Shown here: positions 3,667 through 60,386 of the stretch, piece after piece | How the letters are laid out: the number at the start of each line of letters is the position of its first letter | How positions within the stretch are numbered: the stretch's first letter is position 1 | From: a virus | Reading direction: 5' to 3' (one strand) | IMG/VR virus record: IMGVR_UViG_3300045988_184134 | Length of the DNA: 64,000 nt | Made by a program: the position numbers and the translations under genes | The notes under the pieces: model-generated | What the model was told of the DNA's origin: nothing | The model's database searches: none | The model's input: the letters and a program-made list of their open reading frames with translations, nothing else

Positions 3667-4824
3667 TTACGGCTTGCAATACCCGCAAGGTGTATAGCCC
3701 TGCTCGATTAGGTCATCGCGGGAACCTGTATAGTCTTTGCGGTTTGCATCGCTCATTTGAGCTACGGCGGAGCAGTCAGGCTTATGAAATTTCATAGAGT
3801 TTGTGTTCAGGACATAGGTACTGACCGTCGTATCCTTTTGCTGTGACTCCTCGACCTCGACTGTATCGGTGGTAGTGCTTTCTGCCGCCTGGTGATATTC
3901 GCCATAAGTGAAAGTGACGTCCTTACCGTCCGATGTGCAGTAGATGTCTCCCATCTCGTCAGTTCTGAAAACCTCAATGTCTTTGCTCTGGAGCTTTGCC
4001 AAAGTGATGTCGTGTGGATGACCATAGCTGTTGTCCTTGCCACAGGAAATAACAGCATAGGCTGGATTCACTGTGTCGAGGAATGCTTCGGATGTGGAGG
4101 TTCGAGAACCATGATGCCCTACCTTCAGAACAGTAGATTGGATGTCTTGTCCAGACTGTAGGATAACATCTTCGGCAGGCTCTTCTGCATCACCCGTAAA
4201 CAAGAATGAGGTTTCTCCATATACGATGCGTAGGACAATGGAGGTATTGTTGGTATCATCCGGCACTGAGTTCACGGCGATAACAGTCACTTCGGCATCG
4301 CCAAGGGAGAATGTATCCCCTACCGACGGAATCGTAAGGCCGTTGCCTCTTTCTTCCGCTCGCTGCTTGAAGTTCCGAAAAGCTTTACTGTCGTACTCTG
4401 TGACAGGGCAATACGTGACATCAGCCGTCACGGCTTCGAATGCACCGGAAAGACCTCCGATATGGTCTTCATGGGCGTGCGTGCCAACAACATAATCCAG
4501 ATGTCCGTCTGTCTCACGTTCCAGAACAGAATATACGAGGTCAGAATCATCAACATTGCCACCGTCAATGAGCATCGAATGCCCATCACAGGTAACAAGA
4601 GCAGAGTCCGCCTGCCCCACATCAATGAAGTGGATAGTAAAGCTGCCGTCTTCCGTTACGCCAGCCGTCTGCTCGCTGTCAGAGACAGGACTTTCTGAGA
4701 CGACCCCGGATACAGGAAGACTACCCGAATCAATCGGGGTCTGACCGCAGCCTGCGAAGCTGAGGGTGAAGAGTGCCGCAATCGCTGCCGCTGCTCTCCG
4801 CAAGAATGTGTTTTTGCTTTGCAT
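3667..4824 (-). CDS. MBL-fold metallo-hydrolase lipoprotein with C-terminal Cys/His zinc-ribbon-like tail
   Basis: Lipobox LSFAGC after the signal peptide; HAHEDHIGG (HxHxDH) metallo-beta-lactamase motif; C-terminal H-K-P-x-C…C-G-Y-C-K-P motif. Confidence 0.7.
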   Translation of the reverse strand: MQSKNTFLRRAAAAIAALFTLSFAGCGQTPIDSGSLPVSGVVSESPVSDSEQTAGVTEDGSFTIHFIDVGQADSALVTCDGHSMLIDGGNVDDSDLVYSVLERETDGHLDYVVGTHAHEDHIGGLSGAFEAVTADVTYCPVTEYDSKAFRNFKQRAEERGNGLTIPSVGDTFSLGDAEVTVIAVNSVPDDTNNTSIVLRIVYGETSFLFTGDAEEPAEDVILQSGQDIQSTVLKVGHHGSRTSTSEAFLDTVNPAYAVISCGKDNSYGHPHDITLAKLQSKDIEVFRTDEMGDIYCTSDGKDVTFTYGEYHQAAESTTTDTVEVEESQQKDTTVSTYVLNTNSMKFHKPDCSAVAQMSDANRKDYTGSRDDLIEQGYTPCGYCKP

Positions 4825-5222: not shown

Positions 5223-5996
5223 CTAAGCAGACAGCGTGGCTCTGACGACATAGCGTTGGTTTGTGGTTTGGTAGTATCCGAACGGATAGCAGGTATACAT
5301 CACGAGCCGGTCGGTGGTGTCCGAAAGGTCCACAAGAATGGTTCCATCATCGGCCACCACAGTGCCCGCGTCTGCCGTTACCGTTCCCGGCCTGGCAGAA
5401 TCTACCGTATATACGTATTGTCCGTAGTCTGTAGTGACCACAAATTCGTCACCAATACTTACGTATTGAAGCAAAGCCAAAGTGCTGTCGTTATGGGAGC
5501 AAAGAAGATGACAACCACCGTAGCCTACCTGATAGGAGCCTGCGTACTGATATACACCGCTGCGGCTGTCGAGGAGAGCTTGGTCATCGCCCCAGATAAG
5601 GGAAGCGTTGATACCTACGCTGCTGCATGAGACTGTCCCGTAGGAAGCGCCATACGTGGCAGGCACCACATCACCCCATACGCTGGTCGTGAGTGGAGCC
5701 GGAGTATCTGTAGGGACCGGTATTGGTGCTTCTGTCGGTTCAGGCGTCTGTGTAGGAGTAGGCTCTGGTGCAGCTGTTGGTTTCGACAAAGGAGCATGAG
5801 GTGTGGGTTCCGGGATGCTGTCGGTGCTTAGATAAATCGCATCATTCGCTGTCTCAGCCGTTGCCGCTGATTCCGTTGTGCTGGCAAAAGAGTCTGGTGG
5901 TACTGATACGGGAGTAGATGCACTACTCGCGCAAGCTGTGGCAAAGGTCAGTACGCCTACTGCCACAGCAGTTATCACTGCTTTTGTCCGTCTCAT
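5223..5996 (-). CDS. sortase-family protein (secreted/lipoprotein, Pro/Thr-rich linker)
   Basis: N-terminal signal/lipobox (FATAC); PT-rich linker. C-terminal domain carries the sortase signature order: His (GGCHLL), Y.Y.V, TLxTC-like LVMYTCYPF, and Arg in RYVVRA. Confidence 0.5.
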   Translation of the reverse strand: MRRTKAVITAVAVGVLTFATACASSASTPVSVPPDSFASTTESAATAETANDAIYLSTDSIPEPTPHAPLSKPTAAPEPTPTQTPEPTEAPIPVPTDTPAPLTTSVWGDVVPATYGASYGTVSCSSVGINASLIWGDDQALLDSRSGVYQYAGSYQVGYGGCHLLCSHNDSTLALLQYVSIGDEFVVTTDYGQYVYTVDSARPGTVTADAGTVVADDGTILVDLSDTTDRLVMYTCYPFGYYQTTNQRYVVRATLSA

Positions 5997-9683: not shown

Positions 9684-12508
9684 AGACCTCCAAACGAAAG
9701 TTGCTCGCCCGTTGTCTGAGGCTTTGCTTCACTCTTTTCTTTCTTCTTGGAACCAAAGCTGCCACCATTACGCCGCTTGTAGCCGTACCCCTTATGCGCA
9801 GCCTGGACGGATTTGTACCCATACCCGTTTGCATCATCCAGCACAGTGTTGGAATCCTCTTCCATGATGACATAGCGTACATCACCGGGTTTAGATAGCT
9901 TGGAGGAGCGAATAACTCGATATTCGGCCGGAAACGCTTCTTTTTCTTTCTTATACTGCTCTTCTCCGTCCTTCCACCAGCCGACAGGTTCAGAGTCATA
10001 CGTCTGACGCTCCGGCGGCAGACGCTTGTACTGGGAGAAGTCATAGGGTTCGGTTGCGGTTTCTTCTGCAACTTTGACATCCACACCCATGCTCTGCAAG
10101 CTGTTCAGCATTTGCTCGAAACTATCAGCCGGATTCAAAACCACCTGTTTCGAGGCTTGAGCCGGGCTGTACTGGGTAACAGGCTTTGGACGCTTCTTCT
10201 CGCGGACTTTCCAGACCTTGAGAAGCTGACGCTCATTGAAGTCGATGACCAAGCCGCAGTCTTTAAGCATCTTGCGAACCACATAAGTAGAGAAGTTCGA
10301 ATAACCCGAATAGGGGCCGACATGGTTCTCAATATCGACTGCCACGCAAGACATCTGATGTTCGAACTCTGCATGGTCATCAAGCCACTGTTCAATGACA
10401 TGGAGAAGTTCTTTCTTATTGACCGATTCTTCCGTAGCTTTCTTATTCTGTTTCACGTATGCTTCGCAGGCGGCCAGAATTGTGTCATAGCCGTTTACTG
10501 CCGTACCGCCCACGATAGAGCGAGTTCCCGCATCCAGGATGACATACTGCTCACCCTGCTTGATAATAGCAACACCTTCGTCCTGCGGCTTTTCCTCAAC
10601 AATGTTGCCGCCGGTATCAAATTCAGGCAGCGAAGTGTCGGACATAACACGGTCGAGAATCGTGTCAAGGCTCTGGGAGTAGTCTTTCTCCAGATTGTAG
10701 GCGAGAGCTTCCGTATAGACGCCCTTGGTGATGCACTTCACTACCGCATTCAGAAAAGCCGTGCGGTCCGGAATTTCGACTTCATACATCGTGTTATCCC
10801 GGATGTTCCAAAGAACGCCGGTAGGAAGGCCTGTGGCGAGCATATAGCAGGCGCACTGGATGAAGTGCTTGTGTGCGAGGTTTGATACGAACTTCAGATA
10901 ATAGACCTTGTTGTCCTTGACTACATCGGCCATACCGCTAACGATAAGCGATGTGACAGGCTGCTTCAGTTCATCCTGTTCTACCACAATGTTTAGTTCT
11001 GCGCGTTCCTGAACCTCTTCATCATGGGTAAACATCGTAGAGAGGCGGTCAGTCAGCGCTTTTGCCTGTTCCGGCGTGATGAAAGGCAGTTCAACCTGCT
11101 TGATGTAACGGTCCTGACTCGTCATCAGCATCGTCAGGAACAGGACTTTTTGCTCCACTGATTTCCAAGAGGTCGGGACCTTCGCCATCTTGTCCTTGTG
11201 TAGGTACATGAAGAAGGCGATGGCGCTGTCGATGTCGTAAAAATCGAAGAAGTTTGCCTGCTGGTAGATACCGATGCAGGGAGACAGGTCAATCATCGCA
11301 TCGGAGTGCTTGATTTCGATTTCCGTCTGGTCTTTCTGGAATACCTGCTTGGTTGTGATAAGGTTGTAGCACGCATCCACATCCTCATCAAACTTGAAAT
11401 CGAACATTTCACTGATGTCGAATTTGTCCTTAAAGGTGGTGCGAGTCTTGACAGGGGTCATCAGTGTCTTGTCACTCACGAGGCTACGCTTATCAGGCTT
11501 AACGAAGATGACTTCTTGCTTGCCACGGCTCGCAGCTACGCAAAAGAGGTTGCGCATGATTTCGTAGCGAGTCAGAGGCTGGCGCATACGGGTCGCCCAG
11601 TAATCCTCGGTAAAATCGAAGACCACGCAGATAGGACGTTCCATGCCCTTGCTGCCGTCGAATGTCGTGAAGATGCCCACATTGCTGTTCGGAGCTACGC
11701 TTTTTTCGCCGTCGTTGTCCTTGATGCTGGCATAAACATGTTTTTTGTCGTAAAGGTTATCGGGGCGCTCTTCCAAGGCATTCAAAACTGCGGCCATCTG
11801 GCCGGTACGAGCGCCAAGGCATAGGACGTTCTTCGGGTCCAAATCGTTGAGGTACTCGATGACCTCATCCTTCGTCATGGACTTGACTTTGCAGTTCTCG
11901 TTGACTCCGTTGATTTCCTTATTCCAGATAGTGCCAAGGCGCTCGGCCAAGTCGTGGGACAAGCGGAAGCATTGGGTAAAGTTGACCTGCGTGTGTTTGC
12001 CGAGGAACTTGTTGATGAAGTTCCAGATGTCCAAGGATGTGGTGTCGTAGATTTTCTGCGCCATATCCCCCACCGCAATAATTTGCATGGTGGGGTTTTC
12101 TTCCTTGATATATTCAAGCATTCGAGAGATTTCTTCGTTAATATCTTGGTACTCATCGATGATGAGCACGTCATAGCGACCGACCGGAACATGCAAATCG
12201 AGCGCCTTCTTAATTTGCTCGCCCTGTCCAATATTACGAACTCCGTGCCGATAGAGGAGTTTTGAAGCAAAGCCGTGGTAGTTCTGGACGACAACATTGT
12301 CGTTTAGGATTTTTTCTTGCGCGTCGAGTTTTAGCAGACGGTTATAGGTCAGGTACAGAATCTGTTTGGAGGCGTCAAACTCGTTACACAACACGTTGAT
12401 GGTCGATGTTTTACCGCTGCCGATGCAAGCGTCACAGAGTATATTTCTGCCTGCGAGAGCCAGGCGTACAAGGTCCTGTTGCTCAGTAGACAGGTTAGCG
12501 AGAGTCAT
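9680..12508 (-). CDS. UvrD/PcrA-like superfamily-1 DNA helicase (942 aa) with long C-terminal extension
   Basis: Motif I GSGKTS, motif II IIDEYQD, FTTFDGSKGME, motif VI VAASRGKQEV; preceded by leader/terminator module copy 6. Confidence 0.8.
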   Translation of the reverse strand: MTLANLSTEQQDLVRLALAGRNILCDACIGSGKTSTINVLCNEFDASKQILYLTYNRLLKLDAQEKILNDNVVVQNYHGFASKLLYRHGVRNIGQGEQIKKALDLHVPVGRYDVLIIDEYQDINEEISRMLEYIKEENPTMQIIAVGDMAQKIYDTTSLDIWNFINKFLGKHTQVNFTQCFRLSHDLAERLGTIWNKEINGVNENCKVKSMTKDEVIEYLNDLDPKNVLCLGARTGQMAAVLNALEERPDNLYDKKHVYASIKDNDGEKSVAPNSNVGIFTTFDGSKGMERPICVVFDFTEDYWATRMRQPLTRYEIMRNLFCVAASRGKQEVIFVKPDKRSLVSDKTLMTPVKTRTTFKDKFDISEMFDFKFDEDVDACYNLITTKQVFQKDQTEIEIKHSDAMIDLSPCIGIYQQANFFDFYDIDSAIAFFMYLHKDKMAKVPTSWKSVEQKVLFLTMLMTSQDRYIKQVELPFITPEQAKALTDRLSTMFTHDEEVQERAELNIVVEQDELKQPVTSLIVSGMADVVKDNKVYYLKFVSNLAHKHFIQCACYMLATGLPTGVLWNIRDNTMYEVEIPDRTAFLNAVVKCITKGVYTEALAYNLEKDYSQSLDTILDRVMSDTSLPEFDTGGNIVEEKPQDEGVAIIKQGEQYVILDAGTRSIVGGTAVNGYDTILAACEAYVKQNKKATEESVNKKELLHVIEQWLDDHAEFEHQMSCVAVDIENHVGPYSGYSNFSTYVVRKMLKDCGLVIDFNERQLLKVWKVREKKRPKPVTQYSPAQASKQVVLNPADSFEQMLNSLQSMGVDVKVAEETATEPYDFSQYKRLPPERQTYDSEPVGWWKDGEEQYKKEKEAFPAEYRVIRSSKLSKPGDVRYVIMEEDSNTVLDDANGYGYKSVQAAHKGYGYKRRNGGSFGSKKKEKSEAKPQTTGEQLSFGGL

Positions 12509-12634: not shown

Positions 12635-12914
12635 GCGCTTTTTATCGTATTTTGTTTTGAGTTTTGCGAGCACAAAAACAACGTCCACCCGTGATTTACG
12701 GATGGACGTTCAATCTTACGCAGCTACATGTGCTGCTACGATGCTTTCGGACGACATGTAGTCGATACCGTCCTCGTTTCAATCTTACGCAGTCACACGG
12801 GCTGCTACGGCAAAATTACATAACAAAGAATTTTGCATATATTCAGCATTGTATATTCTGCCACTATTGGTTCTACGTTATTTTTGTTTGCTATCACCGC
12901 ATCTCTTTGCGGTT

Positions 12915-17555: not shown

Positions 17556-17876
17556 TTAGCCTTCGATATCGAAAGTGTAGCCCTTCACGGTCATAGTGAC
17601 CAGGCCGCTGCAAGACTTGCACTTTACGCCGTCCAGGCTGACATCGAGAGTCAGGCTGGAATCTTCGTTGTCCAGCCAGCTGGGCCGCATGTAGGCAGCG
17701 AGGTCGTGCAGCGCACCGATGACGTAAGCAACCAGGTCCTCATCATCCAGAGTCTGAGCAATCACGTCGTTTTCCTTGTCAGCGGGAAAGCCGATGGAAG
17801 CGGTGATGCTGTCAAGGGTGTTGTCGCCCTTGGAACGGAAAGCGGTGGCGCTGAACTCAATCAGGTTGGTACTCAT
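17556..17876 (-). CDS. hypothetical protein (106 aa), paralogue of 18065..18385
   Basis: Shares FSATAFRS…WLDNEDSSLTLD… with the neighbouring cassette; has its own promoter and terminator. Confidence 0.5.
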   Translation of the reverse strand: MSTNLIEFSATAFRSKGDNTLDSITASIGFPADKENDVIAQTLDDEDLVAYVIGALHDLAAYMRPSWLDNEDSSLTLDVSLDGVKCKSCSGLVTMTVKGYTFDIEG

Positions 17877-17919: not shown

Positions 17920-17955
17920 TTTATTGTATTCAGTTCGCATATTGCGTCAACTATC
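17920..17955 (-). promoter_or_regulatory. promoter TTGACG-N16-TACAAT (spacer ATGCGAACTG) for 17556..17876
   Basis: Sequence match. Confidence 0.5.
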
Positions 17956-17958
17956 GCA

Positions 17959-18012
17959 CCTATGGTTCGTTGCAGCTACGCTCCCTCCCCTGTTCTTGGC
18001 TGCAGCTACGCA
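17959..18012 (+). repeat. two or three further RGCTACGSY copies, 30 nt apart
   Basis: agctacgct at 17974 and agctacgca at 18004, plus variant acctatggt at 17959; in the spacer between the paralogue cassettes. Confidence 0.45.
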
Positions 18013-18060
18013 ACAAAAAAGGCCTCACCTGTTTTTGGCAGGTAAGGCTCCTAACTGGCT
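18010..18060 (-). terminator. terminator of paralogue cassette 18065..18385
   Basis: GCCTTACCTG-CCAAAAA-CAGGTGAGGC plus U6. Confidence 0.5.
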
Positions 18061-18064
18061 TCGT

Positions 18065-18385
18065 TTAGTCTTCGAAATTGAAGGTGAAGCCACTTTCTTT
18101 CATAGCGACAAGGCCGCCGCGCGTCTGACATTTGTTTCTATCGAGAAAGGTTTCAAGCGTCAGGCTGGTGTCCTCATTGTCCAGCCATTTGGGGCGCAGG
18201 TCGCTGATAAGGTTGTACAGTGCTGCGACAGCATGGACAATCAGTTTCTCTTCGCCCAGCATGTTTCCAATCACTTCGTCGTCGTTCTCCACAGGGACGC
18301 TGATGGAAGCCGAGAGACTTTCGAGGTTGTTGTTGTCATCGTTGCGGAATGCGGTAGCTTCGAATTTGAGAGTACAAGTGTTCAT
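18065..18385 (-). CDS. hypothetical protein (106 aa), paralogue of 17556..17876
   Basis: AAAGGAGAA RBS before the internal Met MNTCTLKFEATAF; similar terminator to the sister cassette. Confidence 0.5.
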   Translation of the reverse strand: MNTCTLKFEATAFRNDDNNNLESLSASISVPVENDDEVIGNMLGEEKLIVHAVAALYNLISDLRPKWLDNEDTSLTLETFLDRNKCQTRGGLVAMKESGFTFNFED

Positions 18386-29233: not shown

Positions 29234-29734
29234 TCACAGTGCAGCCAGATAGTGAATCGCCATCTTTGCAAACCCGATAGCAGATACAAGGCACCATCCT
29301 GCTTTTCCAGCCCAGATAACCTTTGTATAGATGGGTAATACCTTTCGGACCGGCTCCAATTTCCCGAATGCAAGAGGAATTGCAGATACCATCAGCAGCG
29401 AAATATCAAACGCTAAACAAACAAATACAGTTAAACAGTAGTTCAGCATGAGTTGAGCTTCGACCTTATTGACTTCAATTAAGCGCAAAGCCAACAAAGC
29501 AAATGCCGTTGAAATCACACAGCTAATGACAAGGATTCGTACCGTATGGTTCAGAGTATCCTCGGGTGATAGGTATTTTCTTTTGCCGCAGCAATAGGTT
29601 ACTTCTTGGAAGGCTTTACGCCCAAAATACAAGTTATAAACACCACTTGCGGCAAAAAGGATAGCAGTCACAAAGAACAGCGCCGCTCTGCAAATATCAA
29701 CGATACCCATAGGAATCAGAAGGAGAACTTGCAC
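29234..29734 (-). CDS. multi-pass membrane protein (166 aa)
   Basis: Four or five hydrophobic segments. Confidence 0.45.
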   Translation of the reverse strand: MQVLLLIPMGIVDICRAALFFVTAILFAASGVYNLYFGRKAFQEVTYCCGKRKYLSPEDTLNHTVRILVISCVISTAFALLALRLIEVNKVEAQLMLNYCLTVFVCLAFDISLLMVSAIPLAFGKLEPVRKVLPIYTKVIWAGKAGWCLVSAIGFAKMAIHYLAAL

Positions 29735-30603
29735 TCACGGCGCTCGCGGCCATTGCCGCACCAATAGTGCCGCCAGGTGGGAGCCTTACCGTTCGCTTCC
29801 TTCTTGTAACGCTCCATCAGATAATGGCCCACCACAAAGGTCTTGATATTGACTTTCTTGGTCTGGCCCTTGAACGTAAAGACAGGACGTTCGTCCTTTT
29901 TCGGGCTGTCCAGACGAATCTCCACGCCTTTGCTGGCAAGGTAGTAGGCACACAGCATTGCGAGACGGACATAGGGCGTGCCTTCGCCGTAAACAGACGG
30001 GATAGCGTCCAGCGTTTCAGGAATAGTGATGTCATCTTTATCGCGGGTCGAAGATGCCTTTTCGATGTACTGTTTCGTGCTGCGAGTCGCCTCCGTCAAG
30101 CTCTGACCCTCCTTAATCCAAGCGGGAAGGGACAGGAACGCGAAGTTCTCCTTCTCGTTCTGGACGGGGCCGACAAGGACGATGCCAACGAAGGTGTCAT
30201 CCGTCTTTGTATCGAACTCGATATGCACGAACATGCCGCAGTAGTCCACGCTGTTGTACAGAGGCACATAGAAGTTCTTGAACGGCAGGCGCTCCAGCAC
30301 CTCGCGATGGAGAGTGAGGTCATCGGTATCCATCAGCAGTTCCAGAAAATCCTTGCCGAAATCGTAGATGACCTTGGTCTTGTTCCAGTTGGCGATGGTG
30401 TAGCACGGGAAAATCTGGGCAGCCAGCACCTTTTCAAATCCAGGCTGCTGCATCTGCTGGGCAACACGCAGGCACTGAAGCGTAGCGCTCTTGGTGAATT
30501 CGTCCAGCGTCTTGCCGCAGGGGTCCTCAAAATCGAAGCCGGTACGGGTCGAGCGAGTAACGGCATTGGCGGTGAGTGCGATACGAACCTGTTCAGAAGT
30601 CAT
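29716..30603 (-). CDS. hypothetical protein (295 aa)
   Basis: GGAGGA RBS. Confidence 0.5.
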   Translation of the reverse strand: MTSEQVRIALTANAVTRSTRTGFDFEDPCGKTLDEFTKSATLQCLRVAQQMQQPGFEKVLAAQIFPCYTIANWNKTKVIYDFGKDFLELLMDTDDLTLHREVLERLPFKNFYVPLYNSVDYCGMFVHIEFDTKTDDTFVGIVLVGPVQNEKENFAFLSLPAWIKEGQSLTEATRSTKQYIEKASSTRDKDDITIPETLDAIPSVYGEGTPYVRLAMLCAYYLASKGVEIRLDSPKKDERPVFTFKGQTKKVNIKTFVVGHYLMERYKKEANGKAPTWRHYWCGNGRERRECKFSF

Positions 30604-49004: not shown

Positions 49005-49238
49005 TTATTTCTTCGTTTTCTTCCCGGCTTCTTTCAAAATAGTCACCTTCGTCTTCGGATGCAGCTTATCCTTTACAGCTTCATATTCTTCTGTCGTCCC
49101 CTCAAAGGTGATTTTACTACCTCCTGCTACCATCGCTTTTTGCATATCAAGAGAGTCAATGCACTGTGCGGATTCCGTATGAACTCCAATGATAGTTCCT
49201 GTTCCGCGTCCTCTCGGACTTATCACTTCATATACCAT
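49005..49238 (-). CDS. small protein (77 aa)
   Basis: Intact ORF just downstream of 9-mer repeat cluster A. Confidence 0.4.
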   Translation of the reverse strand: MVYEVISPRGRGTGTIIGVHTESAQCIDSLDMQKAMVAGGSKITFEGTTEEYEAVKDKLHPKTKVTILKEAGKKTKK

Positions 49239-49243
49239 GTTTG

Positions 49244-49416
49244 GCTACGCCTCCTAAAAAGAAAAAGAACGACGGCTACGCAACCAGCGACCAGTTTCAT
49301 GGTGGCAGCTACGCTTCCGTCGTTCATAAGCTCCTTTGCTATTGGCAGCGATGCTTTCATCCTCTGCCTACGGTTCGTTCCACGCGCACCTACGGTTTCA
49401 CCCGCCGGGCTACGCT
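49244..49416 (+). repeat. 9-mer repeat cluster A: six copies of RGCTACGSY in 173 nt
   Basis: Copies start at 49244, 49274, 49308, 49366, 49388 and 49408, all in the same orientation; the first three are spaced about 30 to 34 nt apart. Confidence 0.6.
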
Positions 49417-49605
49417 TTAATCATCGTCGTCTTTGAGTGCGTTATAGGCAAAGAACCCATAAAGGCCAAAGAAGTACAGCGTAATAACCCAAGTGGGAAG
49501 GTATTCAGTCACGCCGGTCAGCGTGAAGACAACAGCCATAATACAAGCCGTTACCAGGAACTGCGAATCGACGTACAGCACCAATCCGATGTTAAAGCCT
49601 TTCAT
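49417..49605 (-). CDS. small two-TM membrane protein (62 aa)
   Basis: Two hydrophobic helices; acidic DDDD C-terminus. Confidence 0.4.
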   Translation of the reverse strand: MKGFNIGLVLYVDSQFLVTACIMAVVFTLTGVTEYLPTWVITLYFFGLYGFFAYNALKDDDD

Positions 49606-49607
49606 CT

Positions 49608-50273
49608 TTATGCCTCCTCAAAGTAGTCTCTCAGCGAGTCAGAGACTTTAACTCGTACAGTGTCATCCCACGAGTCGTATTTGTTCTCCGGGTACGAAAC
49701 ATCTTCGACAGAACTCAGCTTCCAGGTAGAAACAGGCTCACCGTCTTCGATGCGAACAATGGTAGGAGCGCCGATACGCTTCTCTCCAATCTCGTACTTG
49801 TTCTTGTCCTTATCACTTACCGTGTAATCTGCCAGGTAGTCTTGCAGCCAATTGAGAAGTTCATCATACCCTTCCCCTGCTGCTTTTGTCATCACAGGAG
49901 CACCAGCATTCTCGTCGTATGCGTAGATGTCGCGGTACTCATCGATTTGGCAGTAGTAAACGGTCTGGTTCTTTTCTTTGGCAATACCGGTAAGTTCAGG
50001 AATCAGGTTGCGGCAGTAAGGGCAGCGAGGATACGCAAAGATAACGATGCCATCTTTGATTTCTCTCGCCTGTGTCGCAGTCACTTCAACATAAGTGTTA
50101 TTCCAGGGAATGCCTACGGTTTGATAGGTATAGTCAGCAGCTACGCTCGGCTTCTGGTTGTTGTATCCAGAGTAGCTTCTTGCAACTACGGCTCCATCAC
50201 TACTGGCTACGCTAATTGCAGCAGCCATTGCCAGCGATGCAACTACGTAAGGAACAATGAATTTCTTAGTCAT
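49608..50273 (-). CDS. secreted thioredoxin/glutaredoxin-fold protein (CPYC active site)
   Basis: Signal peptide MTKKFIVPYVVASLAMAAAISVASS; IVIFAYPRCPYCRNLIPEL CxxC motif. Its first 55 codons carry five copies of the RGCTACGSY 9-mer. Confidence 0.6.
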   Translation of the reverse strand: MTKKFIVPYVVASLAMAAAISVASSDGAVVARSYSGYNNQKPSVAADYTYQTVGIPWNNTYVEVTATQAREIKDGIVIFAYPRCPYCRNLIPELTGIAKEKNQTVYYCQIDEYRDIYAYDENAGAPVMTKAAGEGYDELLNWLQDYLADYTVSDKDKNKYEIGEKRIGAPTIVRIEDGEPVSTWKLSSVEDVSYPENKYDSWDDTVRVKVSDSLRDYFEEA

Positions 50274-50490
50274 TTCTCAAAACCTCAAGTGCCTACGGTC
50301 AGGAGCTACGCTTTGAGGTTTGTAGTTCTTCGGCTACGCTTCGGCAGCTACGCTCCTTCCGTGTTTCGTCTTCTTTATTTTCATCGCCATTATACCACGA
50401 ATTCGTAATTGTCTCAATTGTGGTCCTTCGATGTTCATAAAATAGTAATATTTGCTTTTGAGGTTTTTGACGTGCGCTATCAGCTACGCT
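50112..50490 (+). repeat. 9-mer repeat cluster B: ten copies of RGCTACGSY spanning the 5' end of the thioredoxin-like gene and its upstream region
   Basis: Copies at 50112, 50138, 50183, 50205, 50240, 50291, 50304, 50332, 50346 and 50482. Two of them sit in the loop of the inverted repeat AAACCTCAA…TTGAGGTTT (50281..50322). Confidence 0.6.
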
Positions 50491-50505
50491 TCTTTTGAAT
50501 GAGAC

Positions 50506-51708
50506 TTAAAAGAGACTCTTCTGTTCAGCGGTGTTTGCCGCTTCCATCGCTCGCGCCTCACTCTCTTTAGCAGCATCCAACTGTTTCTGCAACTGTTCAA
50601 TTTGCTTGACCAGTGCATCCTCATTGGAGTTCTTCGTGCCGCCAAATAGCTCATTGGAGATAGAGCCTTTCAGTTCATCGTTGTATGCTTCGCCGAGACT
50701 GCGAATTGCGATGTACATAGGCAGCATCGTGTTATAGAGATTGACGATAGCAGCCACAGCAAGACTTGATGTTTCATCCGCCAGGATTCGGCCATTGTCA
50801 TCAATTTTGATGTGCTCATCGTCCATCAAGGAGAAGAAATCGCCGCGCACCACTTTGCCATCTTCACCGACCTTGGTAAAGTATAAGCTCTTGGCAACAG
50901 CACGCTGAGCTTCGGTGAATTTTTGCTTCGTAATGGTACGGTCATAAGCCGGGCTATTTGCAACACCGGCATCCAACAGGGCCAGCGTGCTCAGCATTTC
51001 GGCGGAACAAGACACGCCGTAGTTAGAGAAAGAGAACCAGTCAAAATGACCAATATCTCCATCGTCATCTTCTAACATGAGGTCATTCGTTCCAGATACC
51101 AGAACTGCATTCGTCACGAGGTCAGAGAAGTTCTTCTGGTTTGTCATACCATATTGGACAAAGAATTTCTCTTGCTCAGACAAAGGCTTTTCTGCATCTG
51201 TCTTTCGGGTCATCTGAGATAATGTGTTGCAAAGACGCGAAAAGCCCATTCGGTTCTGTTCCAGATAGCTTTCAGGACTCGCAAGCAGGAAAATGGCAAA
51301 GACTGCCACATTCCCAATCTCGCTTCCATAAAGGCCAGACATACGCTTTGCCAATTTCAGCATGCCATCTTTTTCGTTTTTATAAATTTCACTGACAAGA
51401 GAAGCGACAGAGCCATATTCTTTGCCAAACAGCATTACCAACTTTGTGTATTTGGGTGCCTTATCCGCATACAGCAAATAATAAAGGACAGCTGCGATTT
51501 TTAGTCCCTCCGTGCGCTTGGCACAAGGCAGCACAGTAACGCCATAGAAATTCCCGTCTGCAATAAGTTCTTTTGCGCAGCGACGATAGCAAAGGTTGCT
51601 CTCGTATTCTTCGATGAACCGTTTGCGAGGACCGCCCGTGTGCGTCAGGTCAGCAGCGATAATGCTGCACCACATTGGGTCAAATGGGATAGATTCGTTA
51701 TATTTCAT
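50506..51708 (-). CDS. hypothetical protein (400 aa)
   Basis: Intact ORF with a C-terminal coiled coil. Confidence 0.45.
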   Translation of the reverse strand: MKYNESIPFDPMWCSIIAADLTHTGGPRKRFIEEYESNLCYRRCAKELIADGNFYGVTVLPCAKRTEGLKIAAVLYYLLYADKAPKYTKLVMLFGKEYGSVASLVSEIYKNEKDGMLKLAKRMSGLYGSEIGNVAVFAIFLLASPESYLEQNRMGFSRLCNTLSQMTRKTDAEKPLSEQEKFFVQYGMTNQKNFSDLVTNAVLVSGTNDLMLEDDDGDIGHFDWFSFSNYGVSCSAEMLSTLALLDAGVANSPAYDRTITKQKFTEAQRAVAKSLYFTKVGEDGKVVRGDFFSLMDDEHIKIDDNGRILADETSSLAVAAIVNLYNTMLPMYIAIRSLGEAYNDELKGSISNELFGGTKNSNEDALVKQIEQLQKQLDAAKESEARAMEAANTAEQKSLF

Positions 51709-59168: not shown

Positions 59169-60386
59169 TTATGCAGTTACATTTAAATCACGAGGAATAA
59201 ACGGGATATACTTGAATTCCTGTTTTTCCGCGCATTTTACGATACTTTGATTGGCGGGAATGAATGGTCGTAAAGCCTTTCCCTGCGATACTGCAAGGAA
59301 GTAATCATCCACGCCTTTGTAAGCCGTGCCCCAGTTGAAGCGCGTCATAGTGATGCCATAACGAGCTGCAATCGCATAGAGCTTTTTCAGCGCATTGCGA
59401 ACATGCTCATTGCTTTCTCGGTCCGAATCGAAGGCATCAGCCACATGAGTAACGCCCAACGCTTTGAGGTGCTCACAAGTCGCTTCCCATTGGTTAAAGC
59501 AGTTGACTCCAGCAAGGGCAATGTACGGATTCGAGTTACCACTCAGCGTGCAGGCAATGTGAGCTTTCAAAGCTCCTTCCGTGATGTACACGGTCTTGTC
59601 CTTTGCGCATTTGGGCATAACTCCCGGAATACCATAGCTTGCGATGTTTTTGGCGCTACACCCGTTCTCATAACCTGGAGATGAGAACCAACGATAACGC
59701 TTGTCACCATCATCGAACCGAATCTGCATACCAACAATCTGATTATCGGCATTAAAGTACGGGATGAAGAATCCGGGCTTCGTACAAGCAGAGAAGGCTT
59801 TTCCGTTTTTCTCATAGAAGCCGGGAATTCCAATAAAGGAAATCTTCAGCTTCTTGAGTCTCACGAATACGCCAGCCCAGTGTTCAGGAACAGAACGATA
59901 CAGGCATCGGTCGATGACCTCGTCCGTCAAACCTCGCTTGCGCAGATTTTCTCGATGCTCAGGATTCAGAGTCAGCTCATTCAGAACCGCTCTATACACC
60001 TTATCGAGTTCTGCATCAGGACGTGCCTGTAAGCTGAGGTCAATGTCCGATTCCGGCCTCATCACAATTTTACATTTTGTGTGCGCTGGTTTGCCGCTGA
60101 GGTCCATCGAAATGGCATGCTTGGCGAACTGTCTGTCGTTAGGGTCAATTCCCGTAAACATGCAGTAAAGGTCAATCATGCCGCCACTGTATGGGCATCC
60201 GCTGCAACAATGGAAGCAGTTGTACTGTCCCTTTGCAACATTGACGCTGAAATAGACTGGTTGCTTATTGCGCCCGCATACGCCATGCGGGCACTGCACC
60301 TCTATTTCACCGGCACGCGTAACCTTTCCACGGGTCTTGGCCCCCACAAGGTCCAAAACCGTGTCCATAGAAAAGCTCCATGCCAC
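59169..60386 (-). CDS. DnaG-type DNA primase (CHC2 zinc finger + TOPRIM)
   Basis: CPHGVCGRN…YNCFHCCSGCPYSGG zinc finger; TOPRIM Glu (TVYITEGALKAHIA) and DxD (ADAFDSDRESNEH). Confidence 0.8.
   Translation of the reverse strand: MAWSFSMDTVLDLVGAKTRGKVTRAGEIEVQCPHGVCGRNKQPVYFSVNVAKGQYNCFHCCSGCPYSGGMIDLYCMFTGIDPNDRQFAKHAISMDLSGKPAHTKCKIVMRPESDIDLSLQARPDAELDKVYRAVLNELTLNPEHRENLRKRGLTDEVIDRCLYRSVPEHWAGVFVRLKKLKISFIGIPGFYEKNGKAFSACTKPGFFIPYFNADNQIVGMQIRFDDGDKRYRWFSSPGYENGCSAKNIASYGIPGVMPKCAKDKTVYITEGALKAHIACTLSGNSNPYIALAGVNCFNQWEATCEHLKALGVTHVADAFDSDRESNEHVRNALKKLYAIAARYGITMTRFNWGTAYKGVDDYFLAVSQGKALRPFIPANQSIVKCAEKQEFKYIPFIPRDLNVTA

Follow-up and report, generated by a model that had tools for sequence, protein, structure and literature searches.

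What purpose is served by a short sequence that recurs in one orientation across positions 49,244 to 50,490 of a 64,000-nucleotide stretch of DNA (IMG/VR record IMGVR_UViG_3300045988_184134), in and around a gene for a secreted thioredoxin-like protein? The whole 64,000-nucleotide stretch that was analysed is referred to below as the window. An initial annotation, made from the sequence alone, had taken the repeats mainly for an iteron-like array of a replication origin or a partition site, and had named an array of regulator binding sites as another possibility.

The repeated unit and its arrays

The plus strand carries 16 CTACG cores in a single orientation, 6 in 49243-49416 (cluster A) and 10 in 50112-50490, which agrees with the number and the two clusters initially described; the 9-mer RGCTACGSY used to define them fits only 9 of the 16. 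The set is made up of 10 GCTACGC, 4 CCTACGG and 2 weak intragenic copies (ACTACGG and ACTACGT). RGCTACGSY is enriched, with 17 matches in the window versus 2.2 expected and none of 100 shuffles reaching 17. For ASCGTAGSY, 20 matches were observed versus 2.2 expected, and GCTACGC occurs 15 times on the plus strand and twice on the minus strand. A better description is obtained on the gene-sense (minus) strand, where the motif is the 12-mer W-A-[G/C]CGTAG[C/G]-Y-R-C (for example, AAGCGTAGCTGC), and conservation stops at these 12 nt when positions from -45 to +36 are checked. It is repeated beyond chance and it is conserved.

The gap between the clusters, said to be copy-free, contains no copy in the same orientation, but a reverse-oriented, unpaired GCGTAGA is present at 49920-49926. 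The spacings of 31 and 33 nt within cluster A and of 30 nt at 17974/18004 are as first reported. Helical phasing does not hold as a general property: spacings are anywhere between 8 and 112 nt, peaking only loosely near 30-33, and spacers in orthologous arrays differ by 1-6-nt indels. The 9-bp inverted repeat around two copies (50280-50288 and 50313-50321) was also found as described; the 3' arm on its sense strand includes the Shine-Dalgarno sequence GAGG, and the repeat occurs in this lineage only.

Thirteen of the 15 sense-strand GCGTAGC copies in the 64 kb have another CGTAG core at most 60 nt away, and the remaining two lie 130-160 nt from their arrays. Three simple candidates were rejected: a Chi-like hotspot, because no copy is dispersed versus about 4 dispersed copies expected by chance; a backup stop codon (UAG within the motif), because it is at odds with the covarying flanks and with an inconsistent frame; and an ECF-type or phage-type promoter, because there is neither a -35-like partner nor a longer unit and nothing is conserved beyond 12 nt. 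A literature search with the 7-mer and both 10-mers returned no description of the motif in conjugative elements, and phage and plasmid reference collections gave no DNA or protein match. No Rfam family was found at the arrays, using permissive settings on the region and the gathering threshold on the window and five loci. The Rfam matches in relatives were tRNA clusters only. A pattern scan of species-representative genomes gave, among the matches listed, CRISPR arrays, coding tandem repeats and unrelated repeats.

Table 1. Array features in the window, with positions counted from its first letter
Feature	Position	Strand	Remarks
Motif copy, sense GAA-GCGTAGC-TGA	50482..50490	-	~65 nt upstream of -35 box
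Promoter TTGAGA-17-TATAAT, extended -10 (TGG)	50389..50417	-	strong, sigma-70-type
Four motif copies	50291..50354	-	5' leader of thioredoxin-like gene
Leader GCGTAGC copies	50346-50354, 50332-50340, 50304-50312	-	
Leader CCGTAGG copy	50291-50299	-	
9-bp inverted repeat AAACCTCAA / TTGAGGTTT	50280..50321	-	two motif copies in loop
Five motif copies	50112..50249	-	first 55 codons of thioredoxin-like gene; all in frame xxC-GTA-Gxx
Intragenic GCGTAGC copies	50205-50213, 50139-50147	-	
Intragenic CCGTAGG copy	50112-50120	-	
Weak intragenic copies	50241-50249, 50184-50192	-	
Secreted thioredoxin-like protein gene	49608..50273	-	signal peptide, CPYC motif
62-aa membrane protein gene	49417..49605	-	TAA stop 1 nt before first cluster A copy
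Cluster A, upstream half	49366..49416	-	GCGTAGC 49408-49416; CCGTAGG 49388-49396, 49366-49374
Terminator-like hairpin	49253..49325	-	RNA z = -3.55; U-run after stem
Outer stem of hairpin, GAACGACGG / CCGTCGTTC	49317-49325 / 49267-49275	-	
Motif copy	49243..49251	-	between Shine-Dalgarno AGGAGG and ATG of 77-aa gene
77-aa protein gene	49005-49238	-	downstream of cluster A
Second array	17923..18047	-	between two paralogous 106-aa genes
Second array, intrinsic terminator	18015-18047	-	first in order
Second array, two GCGTAGCTGC copies	18004-18012, 17974-17982	-	after terminator
Second array, degenerate third copy ACCATAGGTGC	17956-17966	-	
Second array, promoter TTGACG-16-TACAAT	17923-17950	-	last in order
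Three GCGTAGC copies	11693-11701, 11534-11542, 11482-11490	-	in 942-aa UvrD-like helicase gene

The promoter at 50389..50417 has the top score in the window and is invariant across three diverged lineages, and the leader copies lie at about +35 to +95 nt from its -10 hexamer. In relatives, the copy at 50482-50490 overlaps the final codons and stop of an upstream 91-aa zinc-ribbon gene. At the other end of the array, each arm of the terminator-like hairpin holds a motif copy (49307-49315 and 49274-49282), the two pairing through G.U; this hairpin is kept in 5 sequences, with compensatory changes at 4 pairs. An AlphaFold model of the 77-aa protein was too poor for a fold search (mean pLDDT 60), and Pfam and NCBIfam searches with neighbouring small and large proteins gave nothing usable.

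The two clusters first described are not the only ones, as the same motif also occurs at 17974-18012 and 11482-11701. At least four arrays are present in the window, and at least six non-homologous array families in related elements. Their motifs are always gene-oriented, variably spaced, and situated at stop codons, terminators and promoters; some lie in a 5' untranslated leader or in coding sequence, and the conserved terminator hairpin has them in both arms. Some copies abut or contain a stop codon and others flank terminators, and in one family they come after the terminator. Four of the six families (F1-F3 and F6, the last including the second array) have three copies upstream of the next promoter, 8-70 nt from a -35 box. 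One relative has an intact CCGTAGG as third copy in F6. Copies thus placed, or placed downstream of a start site, never lie over a -35 or -10 hexamer.

Strand, paired flanks and conservation

Every clustered copy in the window is on the gene-sense strand. The bases flanking CGTAG are Watson-Crick complementary in 18/19 clustered cores versus 3/19 isolated ones (p = 1.3e-6), which is consistent with a C-GTA-G mini-hairpin. Across IMG/VR loci (a sample of ~1 Mb of motif-selected loci), clustered flank pairs were GC in 75 cases, CG in 13, AT in 2 and CT in 1, with no G..T (90/91 complementary), and contexts of the paired type numbered 104 on the sense strand versus 36 on the antisense strand. For the loop base, enrichment was found for T only, which points to a base-specific reader. 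Nearest-neighbor folding of the 13-mers as DNA gave about -0.1 to -0.9 kcal/mol on either strand, in a model that misses G-N-A loops and assigns the same energy to the well-known GCGAAGC. Note that d(GCGNAGC) mini-hairpins are reportedly exceptionally stable in single-stranded DNA, according to work by Hirao and by Yoshizawa. Cluster A folded as DNA gave z = -2.0 for the sense and -1.5 for the antisense strand.

Relatives with 62-67% identity in the thioredoxin-like protein have arrays in the same places while the surrounding DNA has diverged, and in alignments the intergenic and leader copies appear as invariant islands. Within the gene, AGC-GTA-GC is retained in three lineages as neighbouring synonymous sites drift; thioredoxin homologs outside the element use other residues or codons at these positions and do not have the motif. 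This pattern, judged from alignments, suggests that the copies are functional. The initial view is upheld that these are functional nucleic-acid sites and no by-product of coding, and that they are strictly co-oriented.

The framing of this DNA as a phage was not borne out. In close relatives, genes for VirD4, a VirB4-like protein and pilin immediately precede the thioredoxin-like gene, which is the final gene of their type IV secretion block, and the window is a variant, without type IV secretion genes, of a very large human-gut conjugative element. The element exceeds 95 kb with gene order in one direction, and contigs carrying it cluster at 218-250 kb, for a full length of roughly 230 kb. 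These conjugative elements are widespread: their proteins are indexed in hundreds to more than 1,200 blocks of a public assembly collection, and the loci read were mostly from human-gut assemblies. Besides type IV secretion genes, they carry genes resembling anti-CRISPR and anti-Pycsar functions, and a primase (DUF3854/Toprim protein, 59169-60386). The host looks Firmicute-like, with Gram-positive traits that include a sortase, Shine-Dalgarno sites and TTGACA/TATAAT-type promoters.

How the copies may be read

Our best explanation, held tentatively, is that the arrays are strand-specific signals read on locally single-stranded DNA during transcription. Each non-template 12-nt unit (A-A-GCGTAGC-T-G-C) would fold within the transcription bubble into a two-pair mini-hairpin with a sheared G.A pair and a flipped-out T, like ops (RfaH) and opsX (UpxY). 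RNA polymerase would pause at the unit, acquire an elongation factor there, or both, and the pause or factor would then set the read-through of terminators between gene blocks by polymerases coming from the strong promoter or the preceding operon. In favor of this are the sense-strand bias, the paired flanks and the T-only loop, a conserved length of 12 nt, the same as in ops and suited to the single-stranded part of a transcription bubble, and the published ops/opsX parallel (PMC11685472). The copies are found in transcribed intergenic, leader and terminator positions (after the strongest promoter, at stop codons, and in and around terminators), and their survival as islands absent from outside thioredoxin homologs also agrees with a signal of this kind.

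Several observations run against such transcriptional reading. No NusG/KOW paralog is among the precomputed Pfam calls, which span most of the window and its flanks, and a small NusG/RfaH profile found nothing in ~6,400 ORFs from the motif-bearing and related loci that were retrieved. An operon with known ops elements has one or two of them, in its leader, whereas there are 3-10 copies per array here; the four copies at 50291-50354 do lie between promoter and first gene, but those of F1-F3 and F6 would be met only by read-through polymerases, and one family follows a terminator. Agreement with the pause consensus (G-10, Y-1, G+1) is only partial: Y-R-C is conserved after the hairpin and, with C9 as the pause position, G0 falls at -10, but +1 is not G. 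LoaP, a known NusG paralog of Bacillota, reportedly works through an RNA hairpin instead of non-template DNA (PMC12691694). Finally, two main variants, G..C and C..G, make up the covariation, which a hairpin on transferred or lagging-strand DNA would explain just as well.

Extended to the elements as a group, the proposal is that Firmicute gut elements may use arrays of 12-nt non-template mini-hairpins as an operon-to-operon control code, gating the secretion-end and anti-defence blocks, with a reader that could be a non-NusG factor, a divergent relative of NusG or the polymerase itself; alternatively, the arrays might constitute a new class of minimal single-strand priming signal. We put this forward as a possibility short of an even chance. 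Either way, a hairpin signal at operon boundaries offers a way into the timing of gene expression or DNA conversion in such elements, and the motif is a simple marker for related elements and module borders in metagenomes. Reading in the transcription bubble would extend ops-type control to Gram-positive mobile elements in a multi-copy format and would offer a testable route toward the reader protein, while reading on transferred DNA would make this a new minimal priming signal.

A role in transfer or replication is rather doubtful but deserves consideration. By analogy with sso/ssi sites, mini-hairpins on a displaced, transferred or lagging-template strand might mark start sites for a primase, either the element's DUF3854/Toprim protein or host DnaG. 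Strand specificity and paired flanks are explained by this too, the stability of d(GCGNAGC) mini-hairpins in single-stranded DNA speaks for it, and a primase gene is part of the element. The sense strand serves as the lagging-strand template when a replicon is co-oriented, and is the one transferred in rolling-circle transfer of the ICEBs1 type; the invariant TAG has as its complement CTA, the start triplet preferred by Firmicute DnaG primases. The placement of the copies breaks no rule, intergenic sites being free of coding constraint, and both module swaps and an IscB insertion have breakpoints in or beside copies. However, known sso/ssi sites are long structured elements of 100-200 nt rather than 7-nt hairpins, a hairpin on free single-stranded DNA has no 12-nt limit, the arrays in the window are few and unevenly spaced (at 50, 18 and 11.6 kb), and it would be by coincidence that they accompany promoters, stop codons and terminator arms. 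Pfam and NCBIfam searches with neighbouring proteins identified no relaxase, and no oriT was identified, either of which would show the strand that is transferred.

The arrays of regulator binding sites named in the initial annotation stay in consideration, although we judge them unlikely, with co-orientation and paired flanks counting against them. Here an element-encoded global regulator would bind duplex DNA and tune the promoters of secretion-end and accessory (anti-defence) operons, in the manner of ArdK/KorA of IncW/IncP plasmids, StbA, or omega of inc18 plasmids. The copies of F1, F2, F3 and F6 are suitably close to -35 boxes, which ArdK direct-repeat operators also adjoin (PMC9723621), the 49244-50490 array brackets the strongest promoter, and leader and early-coding arrays might serve as roadblocks. 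A repressor needs no strict co-orientation, yet this is seen at at least nine independent loci. Nor does the reading of independent half-sites predict complementary flanks in 90/91 cases around an asymmetric centre, and spacer changes of 1-6 nt argue against cooperative phased binding. There is no nearby promoter for cluster A, the terminator arms or the helicase-internal cluster, most other strong promoters of the element have no array, and no candidate binder was linked to the arrays across families.

It is improbable that the sites act at the RNA level, through a protein that would bind GCGUAGC in the transcript and block the terminator hairpin or occlude ribosome-binding sites. The G.U pairing of the two copies that form the arms of the conserved terminator is that of an RNA-type stem, one copy sits between the Shine-Dalgarno sequence and ATG of the 77-aa gene, and two are in the loop of a hairpin sequestering a Shine-Dalgarno sequence. 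Against this, G..U variants of the mini-stem are absent among the 91 clustered copies, an RNA stem of 2-3 bp is unstable, and ribosomes would sweep copies in translated sequence; the 5' leader array is unstructured overall (z = -0.25), and Rfam gave no match.

The main proposal of the initial annotation, iterons of a vegetative origin or a partition centromere, now appears very improbable. Direct repeats in two clusters are what suggested it, and contigs at 218-250 kb mean that the element may be an autonomous replicon needing an origin. Full-length relatives moreover encode, two genes upstream, a 421-aa protein with a winged-helix-like N-terminus, but this has no Rep or Par signature (Pfam/NCBIfam) and is absent from the window's variant. 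Cumulative GC skew changes in one direction throughout the window and does not turn at 49-50 kb, a single 100-nt stretch is AT-rich and this is the promoter rather than an unwinding element, no DnaA boxes were found, annotated neighbourhoods contain no partition ATPase, and, as had been noted from the start, no Rep family is represented among the neighbouring genes. The lack of a skew turn, AT-rich unwinding stretch, adjacent initiator or partition gene and fixed phasing makes an origin of this type unlikely. The unit is also 12 nt rather than 17-22 nt with irregular, indel-variable spacing, gene-oriented arrays are many per element, and copies lie within coding sequence and a terminator.

That the copies are passive boundary sequences, short conserved module-junction linkers persisting by promoting recombinational shuffling of gene blocks, is scarcely credible: variant elements do diverge in, or within ~35 nt of, a copy (L006 breaks inside the motif between CCGT and AGG, the junction of three upstream variants is 32 nt ahead of the 50482 copy, and F3 variants diverge at the second copy), but 12 nt is too short for efficient homologous exchange, paired flanks, strand specificity and intragenic copies are left unexplained, and any conserved signal is expected to yield junctions at conserved sites.

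Comparison with known systems

Theta-plasmid iterons share with these arrays clustered short repeats in the same orientation, but are 17-22 bp long with regular spacing of ~22 bp, occupy one or two loci per replicon and adjoin a rep gene, an AT-rich stretch and DnaA boxes, none of which were found here. Short direct repeats near promoters of establishment or transfer genes are also known for ArdK/StbA (R388), omega (pSM19035) and ParR/parC (PMC9723621, PMC3937220, PMC3098194); these are contiguous or regular, overlap the -35 box and are orientation-free, with flanks that do not covary.

The ssoA/ssoU sites of rolling-circle plasmids, ICEBs1 sso1 and F-like ssi/Frpo are likewise orientation-specific non-coding single-strand signals of mobile elements, and the element here has its own primase. 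Each of them is one long hairpin structure, 100-300 nt in size and with promoter-like or CS-6 features, in contrast to a 7-nt hairpin in loose arrays. The virion RNA polymerase of phage N4 uses, on single-stranded DNA early after entry, small hairpin promoters with a G-N-A-type three-base loop closed by C:G, whose AGC-GGA-GCT resembles the AGC-GTA-GCT found here. Those promoters have stems of 5-7 bp, one per promoter, on the template strand, and depend on a dedicated single-subunit polymerase; no such polymerase is evident here.

There is also a likeness to the published sites of RfaH (ops, GCGGTAGC) and of Bacteroides UpxY (opsX, YGCGNAGCR), and to the element of B. fragilis PSA (ccGCGTAGCgca) (PMC11685472). 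The 7-base core here equals the non-template-strand hairpin GCGNAGC by which NusG paralogs are recruited in Bacteroides. Those systems use one or two sites rather than multi-copy arrays of 3-10, and many arrays here are at operon ends or upstream of the next promoter. Flanks here are A before and Y after the core, as opposed to Y before and R after, and the setting is a Firmicute-like host with no NusG paralog found. What is shared is a 12-nt non-template-strand element with a core of GCG(N)TAGC / GCGNAGC, G:C and C:G pairs, a G.A pair and an exposed T, and, for the leader copies, a position at the head of a long one-directional gene array, as in the control of conjugation operons by RfaH/ActX. 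In the B. fragilis PSA element the 7-mer is identical, GCGTAGC (PMC11685472).

A strand-specific unit with paired flanks

Sixteen CTACG cores lie on the plus strand at 49244-50490, all in one orientation, with six in 49243-49416 (cluster A) and ten in 50112-50490 (cluster B). This bears out the initial annotation, which had claimed two co-oriented clusters with at least 16 copies and a copy-free gap between them; zero same-orientation copies were found in the gap. An enrichment check on the window gave a result far above chance, with 17 matches to the annotated 9-mer, RGCTACGSY, versus 2.2 expected, and 17 was reached by no shuffle. As a description of the unit the 9-mer was only partly adequate, fitting 9 of the 16 copies and missing the other seven (by composition, GCTACGC 10, CCTACGG 4 and weak intragenic copies 2). 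GCTACGC occurs 15 times on the plus strand of the window and twice on the minus strand; ASCGTAGSY has 20 matches, with 2.2 expected. Nearly all window genes are on the minus strand, so the motif reads best along the gene-sense strand. Using 56-61 non-identical clustered copies from the window and relatives, the gene-sense unit is W-A-[G/C]CGTAG[C/G]-Y-R-C, and between -45 and +36 these copies show no conservation outside the 12 nt. Helical phasing of the repeats, also proposed, is not a conserved property: spacings are broadly distributed and show no more than a loose mode at 30-33 nt, and spacer lengths vary by 1-6 nt among orthologous arrays.

The bases flanking CGTAG are complementary in 18/19 clustered cores of the window versus 3/19 isolated cores (Fisher p = 1.3e-6). 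In ~1 Mb of further loci, flank pairs of clustered copies were G..C (75), C..G (13), A..T (2) and C..T (1), with zero G..T. Among the four GCGNAGC variants, N = T alone is enriched, and on the sense strand only. Due to the complementary flanks and the T-only enrichment, the unit resembles a hairpin of two to three pairs in which C:G closes G-T-A and T is specifically required. Note that nearest-neighbour folding of the unit did not discriminate between strands; such folding is uninformative because the well-known GCGAAGC gets the same marginal energy.

Locus anatomy and array families

The inverted repeat annotated around two cluster-B copies is present, and its hairpin is listed with the other features in the table.

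Features of the 49.2-50.5 kb locus in gene-sense order, and recurrent promoters of the window
Feature	Position	Strand	Remarks
Motif copy	50482-50490	-	First in gene-sense order
Best sigma-70-type promoter of the window	50417-50389	-	From promoter comparison across the window
Four motif copies	Leader of thioredoxin-like gene	-	
Hairpin sequestering Shine-Dalgarno site		-	Two leader copies in loop; lineage-specific
Five in-frame motif copies	First 55 codons of thioredoxin-like gene	-	
Copy-free stretch, ~690 nt	Remainder of thioredoxin-like gene and 62-aa gene	-	
Cluster A start	1 nt past TAA of 62-aa gene	-	
Long hairpin, then U-run	49325-49267	-	Last part of cluster A
Final cluster A copy	Between Shine-Dalgarno site and ATG of 77-aa gene	-	
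Recurrent promoters, first base	61505, 56718, 54112, 51836, 35249, 23480, 18460, 12634, 995 (and 17950)	Sense (minus)	

Five sequences preserve the structure of the long hairpin, in which many pairs are G.U and four show compensatory changes; the motif is always present in the 3' arm of the hairpin. A 45-aa ORF (49223-49360, minus strand) that overlaps cluster A and this terminator hairpin is uncalled in every related locus and probably spurious.

Array positions are retained in two further lineages, with thioredoxin-like proteins 67% and 62% identical. When cluster A and the upstream region are aligned, the surrounding DNA has diverged but the promoter and motif copies stand out as invariant blocks; within the gene, AGC-GTA-GC persists at two sites despite drift at adjacent synonymous positions. 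Homologs 51-53% identical, outside the secretion context, have different residues or codons at these two sites and lack the motif entirely, so by sequence comparison the motif belongs to the element and not to the protein.

A pattern scan of IMG/VR returned >120 arrays, and six non-homologous families (F1-F6) were left after excluding coding tandem repeats. F4 and F5 are the two clusters of the 49.2-50.5 kb locus, F6 is the array of the window near 18 kb (the 18-kb array), and F3 shares its contigs with F4 and F5. F1 and F2 belong to a second element family, where they occur together on contigs; this family has AcrVA2-like, YpsA-like and other accessory genes in common with the window (43-84% identity). 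In F1, F2, F3 and F6, three copies occupy the gap that separates a gene end from the -35 box of the promoter that follows; the leading copy often overlaps the stop codon or is 0-1 nt away from it. Elsewhere, the stop codon is the TAG of the motif itself. Motif conservation in F1-F3 is biased because these were found using the motif; the unbiased evidence is the paired flanks and lineage conservation.

The 18-kb array is flanked by tandem paralogous 106-aa genes, 45% identical (17556-17876 and 18071-18385, minus strand). Elements carrying F1 and F3 have six-tRNA gene clusters in gene orientation (L229 5056-5615 and L230 6294-6870, minus strand). Module junctions coincide with the arrays. Compared with related locus L001, a variant element (L006 10879-10882) departs from the window type mid-motif, between CCGT and AGG, and F3 variants diverge at the second copy. 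In four loci (L151, L152, L154, L155), a ~1.8-kb insertion encoding an IscB-like 515-aa protein (PLMP motif; ~+906 to +2700 from the start of the thioredoxin gene) begins directly after a CCGTAGG copy of cluster A, with 40 nt including one copy replaced. L012 and L227 have OrfB/TnpB genes at a distance of no more than ~0.8 kb from arrays. Transposition of IS200/IS605-type elements proceeds via single-stranded DNA, which may be relevant here.

The element and its neighbouring signals

An identical thioredoxin-like protein is encoded on many human-gut contigs, downstream of VirD4, a VirB4-like ATPase and other secretion genes. The longest are mostly 218-250 kb (217,909; 226,441; 227,868; 228,627; 229,708; 230,250; 237,146; 245,528; 247,750), and a few reach 1.4-3.3 Mb. 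The 218-250 kb contigs come from independent assemblies and suggest a replicon of ~230 kb, with the caveat that contigs of 1.36 and 3.27 Mb carry the same genes as well. Transcription is one-directional over >95 kb. Cargo includes a type IV pilin, RecD2-like helicase, YqaJ, DUF3854 primase and IMS-family polymerase. The element also has its own SecY- and SecE-like proteins, S26 signal peptidase and sortase (L141 1-1160, L141 12636-13211, window 5223-5996), unusual cargo for a conjugative element. Pfam signatures of AcrVA2-like and, faintly, anti-Pycsar Apyc1-like type are at 29716-30603 and 3667-4824 (minus strand). Given its AcrVA2-like, Apyc1-like, IMS polymerase, NADAR and YpsA-like genes, the region downstream of the array resembles an anti-defence or establishment region. 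Phage identity was rejected, the element being conjugative with secretion genes and pilin; nothing similar was found in phage and plasmid reference sets.

The 400-aa ORF at 50506-51708 (minus strand) corresponds to residues 1-397 of a 559-aa protein in full-length relatives, where the secretion block separates the 559-aa gene from the array. The window lacks everything from the cut point of this gene to ~32 nt before the 50482 copy (junction near 50491-50525), including helicase, pilin, VirD4 and VirB4-like genes. With its truncated ORF and lost block, the window is a secretion-deficient deletion variant.

The recurrent promoter class, TTGNNN - N4 - (T)GTGCGAA - N5/6 - TA(C/G)AAT, counts nine members in sense orientation, plus a weak match on the opposite strand; several have a terminator hairpin upstream, and the class also follows arrays of F1, F2 and F6. 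Its spacer block is conserved, which hints at a regulator or sigma factor specific to the element. Two 30-nt direct repeats at 12711-12812 (minus strand), CGTAGCAGC-N6/7-(G/A)CTGCGTAAGATTG, can each form a GCAGC/GCTGC hairpin and are followed by a terminator and the helicase promoter; they are similar to the motif (TAGCTGCGTA), but their flanks are unpaired. A conserved set in which ATACAACAnTTT occurs twice in direct and once in inverted orientation, at L001 8083-8190 (also L011 ~3998-4090 and L014 ~4038-4130) and missing from the window, directly follows a motif copy containing the stop codon of a 257-aa gene. The set precedes a gene for a 421-aa protein whose N-terminus is winged-helix-like, and may be an operator or oriT.

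Candidate readings of the arrays

The array is a real, conserved signal and apparently undescribed; literature searches for the motif returned nothing relevant. Candidate mechanisms are few and testable, and each turns on a very small, strand-specific DNA hairpin or the duplex form of it. Four features (paired flanks, strict strand specificity, a required T and the 12-nt size) suggest that the unit is recognized as a single strand. We tentatively rank a co-transcriptional signal first, in which pausing and/or factor loading at the arrays would decide read-through between gene blocks. Against this, a profile search of ~6,400 ORFs from the fetched motif-bearing and related loci found no NusG-like protein, the copy number is without precedent, four array families sit upstream of the next promoter, and LoaP, the known Bacillota paralog, is reported to act via RNA (PMC12691694).

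If the arrays acted as a single-strand signal, for example a priming site, on lagging-strand or transferred DNA, the same core facts would be accounted for and no placement rule broken, but the tiny size and terminator/promoter link would be left unexplained; we consider this reading doubtful. Promoter-proximal arrays would fit a duplex operator array of the kind used by the plasmid regulators ArdK, StbA or omega, an unlikely reading in view of the covarying flanks, orientation rule and promoter-less copies. RNA-level binding is improbable. Iterons or a centromere, as initially annotated, are very improbable: cumulative GC skew falls steadily with no turn across the window, no stretch other than the promoter is AT-rich, the units are short and irregularly spaced, the arrays are numerous, gene-oriented and partly in coding sequence and a terminator, and neighbouring genes include no initiator or partition gene. 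Passive recombination boundaries are equally remote.

The co-transcriptional reading is placed first due to two likenesses to known systems. Conjugation operons controlled by plasmid NusG paralogs with ops-like sites are on record (PMC11880322). The closest described objects are the ops and opsX non-template-strand hairpins that recruit NusG paralogs, GCGGTAGC for RfaH and YGCGNAGCR for Bacteroides UpxY (PMC11685472); the PSA locus reads ccGCGTAGCgca (PMC11685472), and its 7-mer is the 7-mer of the arrays.
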